From: an uncultured delta proteobacterium
GTDB taxonomy: Bacteria > Desulfobacterota > Desulfobaccia > Desulfobaccales > 0-14-0-80-60-11
Assembly: GCA_963812655.1 (NCBI GenBank)
Contig: CAWEWX010000077.1
Span: 18,660-82,659, forward strand
Direction: 5' to 3'
DNA length: 64,000 bases
A program made the translations under genes and the position numbers. Shown here piece after piece: positions 10,241 to 58,660 of the stretch (its first letter is position 1; each line of letters starts with the position of its first letter). Below the pieces are notes generated by a model, which was not told the origin of the DNA, made no database searches, and worked only from the letters and a program-made list of their open reading frames with translations.

Positions 10241-11107
10241 TTAAGCCGGCCCCGAGAGGACTCTCTCGATCTTGGCCAGATTGGCCCGGGCCTCATCGGG
10301 CCGGGCCTGCTGCAGCAAGGTGGCCAGGCTGTCGATGATGGAGATTTGGCTGGGAAAGGCGGCCAGGCCGTCCGGAGCCGTGGTCATCTCCCGGCCCGCG
10401 GTCACCAGCACCAGATCCGCCATCCGGGACAGGGGAGCCAAAGGGTTGCTGGTGATGGCCAGGACCCGGGCCCCGCTGTCTTTAGCCACCCGGGCCGGGG
10501 CCAGGATTCCCTGGTTACTGCCCGAGTGGGAGATGGCCAGCAGGACGTCTTCCGTCCCCAGGAGGGCCGCGCTGATGACCATCTGATAGGTCTCGGTAAA
10601 GCAGCGGAGGTCCAGCCCCAGGGGGGCGAAGCGAATGGCGGCATATTGCGCCGCCAGCCCCGAGCCTCGCAAACCGCCAATGATCAGCCGCCGGCAATTT
10701 CCCATGACTTGCCCGGTCTGGAGCAACTGCCGCATCTCCAAAACTTCCAGGGTTTCCTCCAGGGCGGCGAGGTTGGCTTTGAAGATCCACCGCACCAGGG
10801 TGGCGGGACCCGCATCTTCCGGCAGCCGCGGTGGCGGCGCCACCAGTTCCCGGGCCAGGCCGATCTTGAAATCTTGAAAACCCTTAAAACCCAGGGTGCG
10901 GCAACAGCGCATGACGGTGGCCTCGCTAACCCCGGCGGCCGCCGCCACTTCATTGACCGAGGCATAGATGGCCATCTCCGGCTGCGCCAGGATCAGGCTC
11001 GCCACTTTCTGCAAGGCCGCTTTCAGGGAAGGATAAATCCCTCGCAGGCGGATCAAGGCGCCGCTCTGAAGGTCCCGGCCCCTATCCTCCGGATTGGGCC
11101 TTTCCAT
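10241..11107 (-). CDS. MurR/RpiR-family transcriptional regulator (HTH + SIS)
   Basis: N-terminal HTH_6-like segment (VNEVAAAAGVSEATVMRCCRTLGFKGF) and C-terminal SIS domain (LLAISHSGSNQG). Confidence 0.85.
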   Translation of the reverse strand: MERPNPEDRGRDLQSGALIRLRGIYPSLKAALQKVASLILAQPEMAIYASVNEVAAAAGVSEATVMRCCRTLGFKGFQDFKIGLARELVAPPPRLPEDAGPATLVRWIFKANLAALEETLEVLEMRQLLQTGQVMGNCRRLIIGGLRGSGLAAQYAAIRFAPLGLDLRCFTETYQMVISAALLGTEDVLLAISHSGSNQGILAPARVAKDSGARVLAITSNPLAPLSRMADLVLVTAGREMTTAPDGLAAFPSQISIIDSLATLLQQARPDEARANLAKIERVLSGPA

Positions 11108-29740: not shown

Positions 29741-29940
29741 GTTTCATAAATCCGGGAACGTATTTATTAACCGCGGGAGCAAGTGGTTAATTCCCCCTCA
29801 CCCTAACCCTCTCCCCCATCGGGGGAGAGGGGATAAAGAGCCACCGCTTGGAAAGCTCCCTCTCCCCCCGCCGGGGGGAGAGGGCTGGGGTGAGGGGTGG
29901 CAACAAGAAAGGTTACCATACTTAAGAAATCAAATACTAA
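29741..29940. repeat. dispersed composite hairpin repeat, family B, copy 1
   Basis: About 200 nt aligning with 56327-56529 in the same orientation (roughly 85-90% by eye). Structure: TTTCATAAATCCGG...AACCGCGGGAGCAAGTG.TTAATT, then CCCCTCACCCTAACCCTCTCCCCC-n4-GGGGGAGAGGGG ... CTCTCCCCCC-n4-GGGGGGAGAGGGCTGGGGTGAGGGG, then ...TTAAGAAATCAA.TACTAA. Confidence 0.85.
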
Positions 29941-54946: not shown

Positions 54947-54976
54947 TTGCCATTTAGGTTAATTTTTGCTTATAAT
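54947..54976 (+). promoter_or_regulatory. candidate sigma70 promoter for the tatA-like pair
   Basis: TTGCCA (54947-52), 18 nt spacer, perfect TATAAT (54971-76). Lies about 45 nt upstream of ATG 55020. Confidence 0.5.
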
Positions 54977-55019: not shown

Positions 55020-55292
55020 ATGTTCGGCTATAATTTTTCCACCCTGCTCATCGTCCTGGTCATCGCCCTCCTGCTTTTCGGCCCCAAGCGTTTACCGGAG
55101 CTGGGAGAAAGTATCGGCAAGGCCATCCGGAGTTTTAAGACGGCCCATGATGACCCCAATGCGGTGGCTCCCAAGAACGAGATTCCCGGCGGGCCCGCGG
55201 CGCCCGGCGCCACCTGTCCCCAATGCCACAAGGATATCCCGGGGGAGTTCGCCTTTTGTCCCCATTGCGGCAACCGCGTAACCAAAGCTTAA
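55020..55292 (+). CDS. tatA: TatA/E-family protein with C-terminal zinc ribbon
   Basis: MFGYNFSTLLIVLVIALLLFGPKRLPELGESIGKAIRSFK is a canonical TatA TM-hinge-amphipathic helix. The tail has CPQCHKDIPGEFAFCPHCG (CxxC-x10-CxxC). Confidence 0.8.
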   Translation: MFGYNFSTLLIVLVIALLLFGPKRLPELGESIGKAIRSFKTAHDDPNAVAPKNEIPGGPAAPGATCPQCHKDIPGEFAFCPHCGNRVTKA

Positions 55293-55307
55293 TTTTCCGG
55301 TAGCGTG

Positions 55308-55676
55308 ATGGGAATAGATTTTGAAACGCTGATCATCCTTTTGGTGTTGGCCTTCATCCTCTTCGGACCCCAAAAACTACCGGAATATGCCGCCAAACTG
55401 GGGTGCCTGATCGCCAAGTTGCGTGAGGCCAGCTCGGAGCTAAGCCGGCAGTGCCAGACCTCCTTTCCCGATCTCATCCCACCGCCGCCCCCGCCCGGCG
55501 CCAACCAGCCCGCTCCCTGGCAGCCGCCGCCGATTCCGCCAACCTTCCCCTGCCCCAAGTGCTCCCGGGACCTGGGGCCGGATTTCGCCTATTGTCCTCA
55601 TTGCGGCCACCACCTGCAGGAAGGAGGGGAGGCGCCGCCCCCGCCCCCGCCCCCGCCCCAGACCCCGGCCTCCTGA
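55308..55676 (+). CDS. TatB/TatA-like protein with Pro-rich linker and C-terminal zinc ribbon
   Basis: MGIDFETLIILLVLAFILFGPQKLPEYAAKLGCLIAKLREAS is TatB-like. It is followed by PPPPPP...PPPIPP, then CPKCSRDLGPDFAYCPHCG, then a poly-Pro tail. Start is ATG 55308 or GTG 55305. Confidence 0.75.
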   Translation: MGIDFETLIILLVLAFILFGPQKLPEYAAKLGCLIAKLREASSELSRQCQTSFPDLIPPPPPPGANQPAPWQPPPIPPTFPCPKCSRDLGPDFAYCPHCGHHLQEGGEAPPPPPPPPQTPAS

Positions 55677-55745: not shown

Positions 55746-56261
55746 TTGATCCGCCCCTTGACCAATGATGAAGTTGGGGTCGCCCTGAAGATCATCAATG
55801 AGGCGGCCAGGGCTTATCAAGGAGTAATCCCCGAAGATTGCTGGCAGGAGCCGTACATGTCCGGGGACGAGCTGCAGGCGGAGATCGCCGCGGGGGTCGA
55901 TTTTTGGGCTTACCAAGGCTCAAGGGATCTCCTGGGGGTCATGGGACGCCAGCCCCTTACCGAGGTTACCCTGATCCGTCATGCTTATGTGCTCCCGCTG
56001 GCGCAGCAACAGGGCATCGGGGCCCAGCTATTGGACCACTTGCTCAAGGGGGTCAACGCCCCCGTCCTCGTGGGCACCTGGGCCGCGGCCTGGTGGGCCA
56101 TCCGCTTCTATGAAAAATACGGCTTCAGGCAGGTGGCCCCGGATGAAAAGGATCGGCTGCTGCGGCGCTACTGGACCATCTCGGACCGTCAAGTGGAAAC
56201 CTCGGTGGTCTTGGCGGATGGGAAGTGGTTCGCTTCTGGCGTCAAAAGGATTTTTTTGTAA
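55746..56261 (+). CDS. GNAT-family N-acetyltransferase
   Basis: GGAGG lies 6 nt before TTG 55746. VLPLAQQQGIGAQLLDHL and FYEKYGF motifs. Confidence 0.75.
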   Translation: MIRPLTNDEVGVALKIINEAARAYQGVIPEDCWQEPYMSGDELQAEIAAGVDFWAYQGSRDLLGVMGRQPLTEVTLIRHAYVLPLAQQQGIGAQLLDHLLKGVNAPVLVGTWAAAWWAIRFYEKYGFRQVAPDEKDRLLRRYWTISDRQVETSVVLADGKWFASGVKRIFL

Positions 56262-56326: not shown

Positions 56327-56529
56327 ATTTCATAAATCCGGTAACGTATTATTAACCGCGGGAGCAAGTGATTAATTCCCCCTCACCCTAACCCTCTCCC
56401 CCTCGAGGGGGAGAGGGGATAAAGTGCCAAGGCTTAAAATGCTCCCTCTCCCCCCGGTGGGGGGAGAGGGCTGGGGTGAGGGGGGGGGGTGACAAGAAAC
56501 ATTACCATATTTAAGAAATCAAGTACTAA
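56327..56529. repeat. dispersed composite hairpin repeat, family B, copy 2
   Basis: Aligns with 29741-29940 in the same orientation. Contains a G9 run at about 56472-56480. Confidence 0.85.
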
Positions 56530-58603: not shown

Positions 58604-58660
58604 GATTAAATTCCCCCTCACCCTTGCCCTCTCCCCCTCGAGAGGGAGAGGGGATAAAGA
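58604..58660. repeat. half copy of family B repeat
   Basis: GATTAAATTCCCCCTCACCCTTGCCCTCTCCCCCTCGAGAGGGAGAGGGGATAAAGA matches only the left hairpin module of 56360-56425. Confidence 0.7.

Follow-up and report, generated by a model that had tools for sequence, protein, structure and literature searches.

A 64-kb stretch of DNA from an uncultured bacterium of the Desulfobaccales (contig CAWEWX010000077.1; the whole 64,000 nucleotides analysed are referred to below as the window) carries two adjacent genes whose products join the N-terminal domain of the small subunits of the twin-arginine translocation (Tat) system to a C-terminal four-cysteine (Cys4) ribbon. Judged from its sequence, this locus is a real variant of the known Tat system, one that is conserved and fairly common in databases. 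The reading we favour, to which we give a probability of about 55%, is that the pair constitutes the TatA- and TatB-type subunits of this organism, in which a tethered Cys4 ribbon takes the place of the disordered tail and acts as a binding module in the cytoplasm. The tails that TatA and TatB extend into the cytoplasm are generally regarded as unstructured and largely dispensable, and the recruitment of TatA to the TatBC receptor, together with the control of its oligomerisation, is a central open question. A predicted metal-binding module kept on both small subunits across a bacterial class would offer a handle on such events at the cytoplasmic face, and the case for this handle is strengthened by recurrence of the architecture in other phyla and by its linkage or fusion to an acetyltransferase. 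Full-text searches, whose coverage left out most subscription journals, returned nothing relevant on Tat subunits bearing a zinc ribbon; within that literature the pair is provisionally undescribed, as an earlier note on this DNA had supposed.

The two open reading frames (ORFs) of positions 55020-55676 lie on the same strand with 15 nt between them, and the earlier note had placed them exactly, with the ATG of ORF1 at 55020 and the stop codon of ORF2 ending at 55676. Its assignment of both products to the TatA/B family is borne out by the Pfam model TatA_B_E (PF02416, cut-off 21 bits), against which ORF1 scores 57.5 bits (E 8e-16) and ORF2 35.2 bits (E 7e-9). The ORF1 protein is composed of MFGYNFSTLLIVLVIALLLFGPKRLPELGESIGKAIRSFKTAHDD, a Pro/Ala-rich stretch and TCPQCHKDIPGEFAFCPHCGNRVTKA, and it exceeds the curated cut-off of TIGR01411 (tatAE; 62.3 vs 53.9 bits) as well as that of Zn_Ribbon_1 (PF13240; 26.7 vs 25 bits). 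In the AlphaFold2 (AF2) model, a transmembrane (TM) helix (residues 6-20) is followed by an amphipathic helix (24-44), a disordered linker (47-62) and the ribbon (65-86). Residues F20, G21 and P22 of the FGP hinge, as well as F39 and K40, vary little or not at all in an alignment of 24 TatA-like sequences, and an acidic DD motif occupies residues 44-45, after the amphipathic helix. ORF1 therefore keeps the FG hinge, F39, K40/41 and the post-helix acidic motif, which are important in E. coli TatA. Consistent with this, the best matches of the ORF1 profile in the PDB are TatA chains (7b7o at E 2e-11, 2lzr and 2mn7), with TatB far behind (E 2e-3). By its sequence, the ORF1 product thus qualifies as a member of the TatA/E family.

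The ORF2 protein is composed of MGIDFETLIILLVLAFILFGPQKLPEYAAKLGCLIAKLREASSELSRQ, a poly-Pro linker, PCPKCSRDLGPDFAYCPHCGHHL and a Pro-rich tail ending in QTPAS. Its AF2 model shows a TM helix (residues 5-19), an amphipathic helix that is longer than that of ORF1 (24-52), a low-confidence linker, the ribbon (81-103) and a disordered Pro-rich tail. Across 26 aligned TatB-like sequences G20, P21 and the ribbon cysteines C82, C85, C96 and C99 are invariant, and a TatB-style glutamate, E6, is present in at least 90%; ORF2 also has the sequence GPQKLP. Solved TatB chains align to ORF2 over residues 1-65. Ribbon models score just under their cut-offs in this protein (PF13240 22.4 vs 25 bits, DZR 22.8 vs 27.3 bits), but the ribbon is supported nevertheless by its four invariant cysteines and by a predicted local distance difference test score (pLDDT) of 83-86. 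Most species have one ribbon in the TatB-like partner; two species have two, and the members of a clade comprising ten loci have three. As the three-ribbon form is borne by metagenome-assembled genomes (MAGs) labelled Desulfobacca acetoxidans (L041, L073), a cultured relative may be available.

Both proteins end in the same ribbon module, and the motifs quoted in the earlier note are present as written (CPQC-x10-CPHC in ORF1, CPKC-x10-CPHC in ORF2). The similarity extends well beyond the ribbon, since the alignment of the two proteins is colinear from residue 1 to the end of the ribbon (BLASTP, 30% identity, E 3e-14) and the two family profiles align with a probability of 99.75 over 89 columns, ribbon included (hhalign, E 2.5e-27). 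ORF1 and ORF2 accordingly encode full-length colinear paralogs. Their simplest putative history starts from one ancestral TatA-ribbon gene that was duplicated in tandem, after which one of the copies moved toward the TatB role. One duplicate may have gained its TatB-like traits, the N-terminal Glu and the longer amphipathic helix, in this way; alternatively, the ribbon may have been exchanged between neighbouring genes.

The pair is widespread within one bacterial class. When one genome of each GTDB species was scanned, a full-length relative of ORF1 was found in 74 species genomes, all of them Desulfobaccales/Desulfobaccia-type MAGs under various legacy labels, including MAGs labelled Desulfobacca acetoxidans and a closed MAG chromosome of 3.45 Mb (OY969108.1), which has the pair between positions 3,198,085 and 3,218,357 of its record (L013). 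The nearest named relatives are likewise Desulfobaccales MAGs, and the metagenome DNA runs that contain the locus sequence come from peat, wetland and soil. The TatA-ribbon gene is directly followed by the TatB-like-ribbon gene in every one of 78 loci (the 74 genomes and 4 metagenome contigs), and homologous clusters at 90% identity number 468 for ORF1 and 81 for ORF2.

The earlier note had made its reading depend, beforehand, on the cysteine pairs being kept among orthologs, and kept they are. The four cysteines of each ribbon are invariant in the alignments of 24 TatA-like and 26 TatB-like sequences, and an intact CxxC-x(8-14)-CxxC is found in 58 of 59 TatA-like and 76 of 77 TatB-like sequences, the exceptions being evident frameshifts. 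The spacer between the knuckles is 10 residues long in 153 of 156 ribbons (55/58 TatA-like, 98/98 TatB-like). In the TatA ribbon the invariant positions are C66, C69, C80, C83, Q68, H70, G75, F79, P81, H82 and G84, with K71 kept in at least 90% of the 24 sequences. Column conservation is high in the TM helix (0.88) and amphipathic helix (0.90), somewhat lower in the ribbon (0.77) and lowest in the linker (0.47), and the distance from hinge to ribbon ranges from 43 to 66 residues in TatA-like and from 47 to 87 in TatB-like proteins. Pairwise ratios of nonsynonymous to synonymous substitution (dN/dS), which are rough as dS is near saturation, indicate purifying selection on the N-domains (0.15 TatA-like, 0.26 TatB-like) and on the ribbons (~0.23 in TatA, ~0.54 in the first ribbon of TatB-like proteins). 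In outline, anchor and ribbon are under constraint, whereas the tether between them is free to vary.

These data also bear on the explanation that the locus is an artefact, whether of ORFs open by chance, of two pseudogenes or of misassembly. Visibly frameshifted public copies (P0168, P0175, P0185, P0195, P0200, L048 and L080) are what such an explanation can draw on. It is refuted by the intact copies with invariant cysteines in 74 independent species genomes and by dN/dS values below 1, and is further opposed by the significant hidden Markov model (HMM) scores and by RNA contigs that cover the genes, and we regard it as excluded. Frameshifts in the G+C-rich Pro-codon linkers affect many public copies of the pair (P0204-P0210, in addition to the copies just named). 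They yield spurious predictions of ribbon-less or fused proteins, and look like an assembly or sequencing artefact able to mislead counts of architectures.

Expression, which the earlier note had raised as a point that could count against the locus, is seen in peat. Four peat metatranscriptome runs contain contigs that are 85-99% identical to the locus, and contigs spanning 55229-55464 and 55072-55368 bridge the junction between ORF1 and ORF2. These contigs, which are assembled and derive from close relatives, support transcription of ORF1 and ORF2 as one unit. No metatranscriptome contig lies over the flanking rarA or the acetyltransferase gene.

According to the mechanism we propose, ORF1 and ORF2 would supply the small subunits of a twin-arginine translocase, would be co-transcribed from their own promoter and would rely on a TatC whose gene lies at another place in the genome. 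In each protein, a flexible Pro/Ala-rich tether of ~20-40 residues that ends in a predicted metal-binding Cys4 ribbon stands in for the usual unstructured tail, with zinc as the probable metal, and the known N-out/C-in topology of TatA/B would place this ribbon in the cytoplasm. There, the ribbons may serve as tethered protein-binding modules that raise local concentration or valency at the cytoplasmic face, through contacts of TatA ribbons with TatB ribbons as the complex assembles and/or through binding of a soluble partner, for example the co-encoded GNAT acetyltransferase. A binding role is favoured by the variation in ribbon number (1-3) in the TatB-like partner, by the conservation of surface residues other than cysteine in the TatA ribbon (Q68, H70, K71, G75, F79, P81, H82, G84), by the adjacent or fused GNAT gene, and by structural superposition on protein-binding C4 fingers, although the Foldseek E-values of the latter are not significant.

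With respect to the structure of the ribbons, AF2 predicts their strands with a pLDDT of 64-69 in ORF1 and with the higher values given above in ORF2. The 24-residue ribbon of ORF2 superposes at 0.7-0.9 A on the C4 ribbons of RanBP2/NZF fingers, ArnA and bL32, but a Foldseek search of the ORF2 model against the PDB gave no significant match (best E 0.85), so the comparison identifies a fold class only. By sequence, the ribbon tail matched only bL32-type ribbons in the PDB, all below threshold. Two further observations concern ribbons of this type in other proteins. The C-terminal segment 342-380 of PDB 9sfa_A, a 386-aa 'putative regulatory protein', matches the profile of the TatB-like ribbon (E 0.0015), and this chain might provide a structural or functional precedent. 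In addition, several large proteins without a Tat domain (P0202, of 1317 aa, P0208, P0213, P0215, P0216, P0220 and P0232) consist of 5-19 tandem copies of a closely similar ribbon, with Pro-rich linkers between them, which indicates that the unit of ribbon plus linker is itself a mobile repeat module.

The sole clue to a functional association is the linkage of the pair to the GNAT gene. This gene lies directly 3' of the pair as a separate gene in 37 of the 78 loci. In 8 further species genomes (L015, L026, L027, L028, L029, L031, L035 and L039) the TatB-like protein and GNAT form a single in-frame fusion, whose ORF starts near locus position 10280 in loci with full flanks. Fused proteins also form metagenome clusters (P0256, P0178, P0471, P0484, which has 85 members, and P0497). 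The acetyltransferase is highly conserved, with at least 68% identity among its best 120 matches, and is a candidate third gene of the unit. Searches for a more specific identity returned generic models only, with ArsN2 and RimI far under their cut-offs and PDB matches at E ~1e-3. Both adjacency and fusion suggest some event at the end of the TatB-like protein that faces the cytoplasm.

At this same end, most one-ribbon TatB-like proteins finish in a conserved ...Q(P/S)LAS-COOH (26-sequence alignment; the C-terminus of ORF2 is at window positions 55662-55673), and in the GNAT-fused forms the GNAT domain begins soon after this motif. The C-terminus might be a docking or degradation signal.

The fusions can also be read differently, with the TatA fold as a mere membrane anchor for the ribbons and for GNAT or another partner, and export carried out by a separate, canonical TatA(B)C. 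We regard this explanation, the main rival of our favoured reading, as unlikely on balance, though serious enough to be weighed at length. Several observations count against the favoured reading, and some of them also feed this rival. The first concerns tatC. Using E. coli TatC as a phmmer query against six-frame ORFs of the window (with --max) and of 85 loci, we found no TatC-like ORF in the 64-kb window (best E 2.1), in agreement with the earlier note, and no tatC within 10 kb of the pair in the 78 Desulfobaccia-type loci. Among the 85 loci, the same query finds TatC only in the outgroup loci L081-L083, beside a ribbon-less tatA, which indicates that the query is effective and that the separation of the pair from tatC is genuine. 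Second, a crude regular-expression search for Tat signal peptides found none in the Desulfobaccia DNA of the window and ~1.4 Mb of loci, a sample too small, and a screen too crude, for this negative to carry weight. Third, ORF2 falls below the cut-off of the TIGR01410 tatB model (26.8 vs 56.5 bits), and its profile aligns with solved TatA chains about as well as with those of TatB; given these scores on the one hand and Glu6 and GPQKLP on the other, 'TatB-like' is the right level of claim. Furthermore, the RNA contigs may hold contaminating DNA, and the TatA-ribbon genes of other lineages are solitary and occur in varied contexts, which fits accessory paralogs equally well. The pair itself could represent accessory copies, should the same genomes also have ribbon-less tatA and tatB. 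For an anchor, the lack of tatC linkage in all 78 loci, the in-frame fusion of the TatB-like protein to GNAT, seen in 8 species as well as in abundant metagenome clusters, and the solitary genes of other phyla, found beside DedA/VTT, AhpC-like redoxin and mobile-element-like ORFs, would all be natural. Moreover, many bacterial proteins of unknown function carry Cys4 ribbons tethered to a single TM helix, as Pfam PF13240/DZR matches illustrate.

The absence of tatC carries little weight in this balance, because tatA and tatB genes are often unlinked from tatC. A mere anchor is, in addition, difficult to reconcile with the strong constraint on the N-domains in both column conservation (0.88-0.90) and dN/dS (0.15-0.26), or with their retention of residues specific to TatA function, beyond what hydrophobicity would ask for. 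ORF1 lies above the curated TatA/E cut-off, and a differentiated pair of one TatA-type and one TatB-type protein is a requirement of a TatABC system. For these reasons we continue to prefer subunits of the translocase over an anchor. If the anchor explanation were true, it would mean that the TatA fold has been reused as a generic membrane anchor, which matters for annotation, where such proteins are automatically named 'TatA/E translocase subunit'.

TatA-ribbon fusions are not confined to the Desulfobaccia. We searched 1.84 billion representatives at 50% identity with a profile and examined the best 150 clusters, ~90 of which are proteins of 80-175 aa that combine an N-domain of TatA type with one or two CxxC...CxxC ribbons at the C-terminus. 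These proteins differ greatly from each other in anchor, linker and ribbon. Among 30 clusters looked up, the named carriers are candidate division NC10 and Vicinamibacterales; some fusions are acidic and haloarchaeal-like, one of them encoded on a contig of many small ORFs. None of the other-lineage genes checked adjoins tatC: they stand alone among housekeeping genes, lie near DedA/VTT, or overlap an AhpC-like redoxin gene. All of these fusions are automatically annotated simply as 'TatA'. The earlier note had allowed for the possibility that the architecture is common and already annotated; common it is, and automatically named 'TatA/E family', but the ribbon itself goes unremarked in annotation. 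Among the individual loci, L092 (5001-5309), L093 (5001-5258) and L090/L091 provide the contig of many small ORFs, the overlap with an AhpC/TSA gene, which is of 4 nt, and two genes near DedA/VTT. This haloarchaeal-like contig, with its small ORFs, has the appearance of a virus or mobile element.

A bolder proposal would make the ribbons a Tat control or assembly device that has gone unrecognised, in which binding of the ribbons to each other or to a soluble factor, for example GNAT, nucleates or gates the recruitment of TatA to TatBC, possibly in a thiol- or metal-dependent manner, and which has arisen repeatedly in unrelated bacteria and archaea. We hold this to be speculative and, as a whole, rather doubtful.

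The roles that the earlier note had put forward, a coupling of assembly to metal or redox status or the recruitment of cofactor-loaded substrates, found neither support nor contradiction in the computations. A variant in which the Cys4 sites are redox- or iron-active in the manner of rubredoxin, and would let these strict anaerobes adjust Tat assembly, as by a switch, to their oxidative or metal status, appears improbable to us. The CxxC-x10-CPxCG geometry does resemble the Fe(Cys)4 domain of rubrerythrin, there is a weak match to the NCBIfam 'rubrerythrin-like domain' (E 0.11), and the His residues flanking the knuckles are invariant in the TatA ribbon (H70, H82). The host belongs to an anaerobic lineage of sulfate reducers, and one TatA-ribbon gene of another lineage overlaps an AhpC/TSA redoxin gene. 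Conversely, the best family matches are generic zinc ribbons, the flanking His is not conserved in the 26 TatB-like ribbons, and the architecture is also present in probably aerobic or microaerobic lineages such as Vicinamibacterales.

Comparison with known systems helps to define what is distinctive about the pair. With TatA/TatE proteins (E. coli TatA, B. subtilis TatAd, chloroplast Tha4), ORF1 shares the N-out TM helix, the FG(P) hinge, the amphipathic helix with its Phe and Lys, the acidic motif and the size of the N-domain. The tail of characterised TatA is dispensable, unstructured and acidic, whereas that of ORF1 is a tether plus Cys4 ribbon, and the ORF1 gene is not linked to tatC. ORF2 resembles TatB (E. 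coli TatB, chloroplast Hcf106) in its N-terminal Glu, GP hinge, longer amphipathic helix and position right after tatA; it differs in its score under the TIGR01410 cut-off and in belonging to a family whose members have 1-3 ribbons and, within one clade, are fused to GNAT. ORF2 may have arisen by lineage-specific duplication of the TatA-ribbon gene and not be orthologous to the TatB of proteobacteria. Single-pass proteins with Zn_Ribbon_1/DZR domains (PF13240, PF12773), such as S. aureus TcaA, which appeared as a weak NCBIfam match, have the same short CxxC-x(10-12)-CPxCG cytoplasmic ribbon, one TM helix and a low-complexity linker. In TcaA-type proteins, however, an N-terminal ribbon is followed by a TM helix that continues into an extracellular domain, whereas in the present pair a TatA-fold anchor comes first and the ribbon lies C-terminal to it. 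We know of no function for Zn_Ribbon_1/DZR ribbons on membrane proteins. Finally, the ORF2 ribbon shares its fold with RanBP2/NZF fingers, the Sulfolobus ArnA ribbon (8s05) and bL32, with weak sequence similarity to the last; at Foldseek E-values of at least 0.85 this likeness denotes a class of fold, and neither homology nor a common partner.

The genes, the ribbons and the elements around them are listed in Table 1.

Table 1. Positions in the window of the ribbon-bearing Tat pair and of associated or nearby features.
Feature	Positions	Strand	Basis or remarks
Sigma-70-like promoter (putative), TTGCCA-18-TATAAT, ~45 nt 5' of ORF1 start	54947..54976	+	11/12 consensus positions
tatA-ZnR gene (ORF1), 90 aa	55020..55292	+	HMM scores, AF2, alignment
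Predicted zinc ribbon of ORF1, TCPQCHKDIPGEFAFCPHCGNR	55212..55277	+	PF13240 26.7 vs 25
tatB-like-ZnR gene (ORF2), 122 aa	55308..55676	+	HMM scores, AF2, alignment; GTG at 55305 is an alternative start
Predicted zinc ribbon of ORF2, PCPKCSRDLGPDFAYCPHCGHHL	55548..55616	+	Invariant Cys, AF2 pLDDT 83-86
GNAT acetyltransferase gene, TTG start, GGAGG Shine-Dalgarno	55746..56261	+	Pfam Acetyltransf_10/7/1
Long palindromic repeat element, 3' of GNAT gene	56376..56490		Minimum free energy -92 kcal/mol, z = -6.6

Upstream of the pair are the divergent rarA/mgsA and, farther away, genes for a response regulator, DnaJ and subunits of pyruvate:ferredoxin oxidoreductase (PFOR), while the GNAT acetyltransferase gene, a PHP-domain gene, pdxJ, a gene for a 7TM-HD protein and phoH lie downstream. 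The gene order on the left-hand side is syntenic in distant relatives, and such syntenic housekeeping surroundings (RarA, DnaJ, PFOR, PdxJ) are as expected of a core function. The promoter upstream of ORF1 is a pattern match only, with 0.9 such sites expected by chance in the region; a Shine-Dalgarno-like GAGAGG precedes the ATG of ORF1 by 8 nt.

The palindrome that follows the GNAT gene was considered as an RNA gene and rejected in that role, as its hairpin gave only sub-threshold matches to microRNA-precursor families in Rfam. The element is present at least three times in intergenic positions of the window, its arms (GGGGGAGAGGGCTGGGGTGAGGGG and the complement, with a G/C-tract) recurring at 29794-29897 and 58614-58637. 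The element resembles repetitive extragenic palindromes or miniature inverted-repeat transposable elements (REP/MITE-like) and is possibly a bidirectional terminator, with only tentative membership of the unit.

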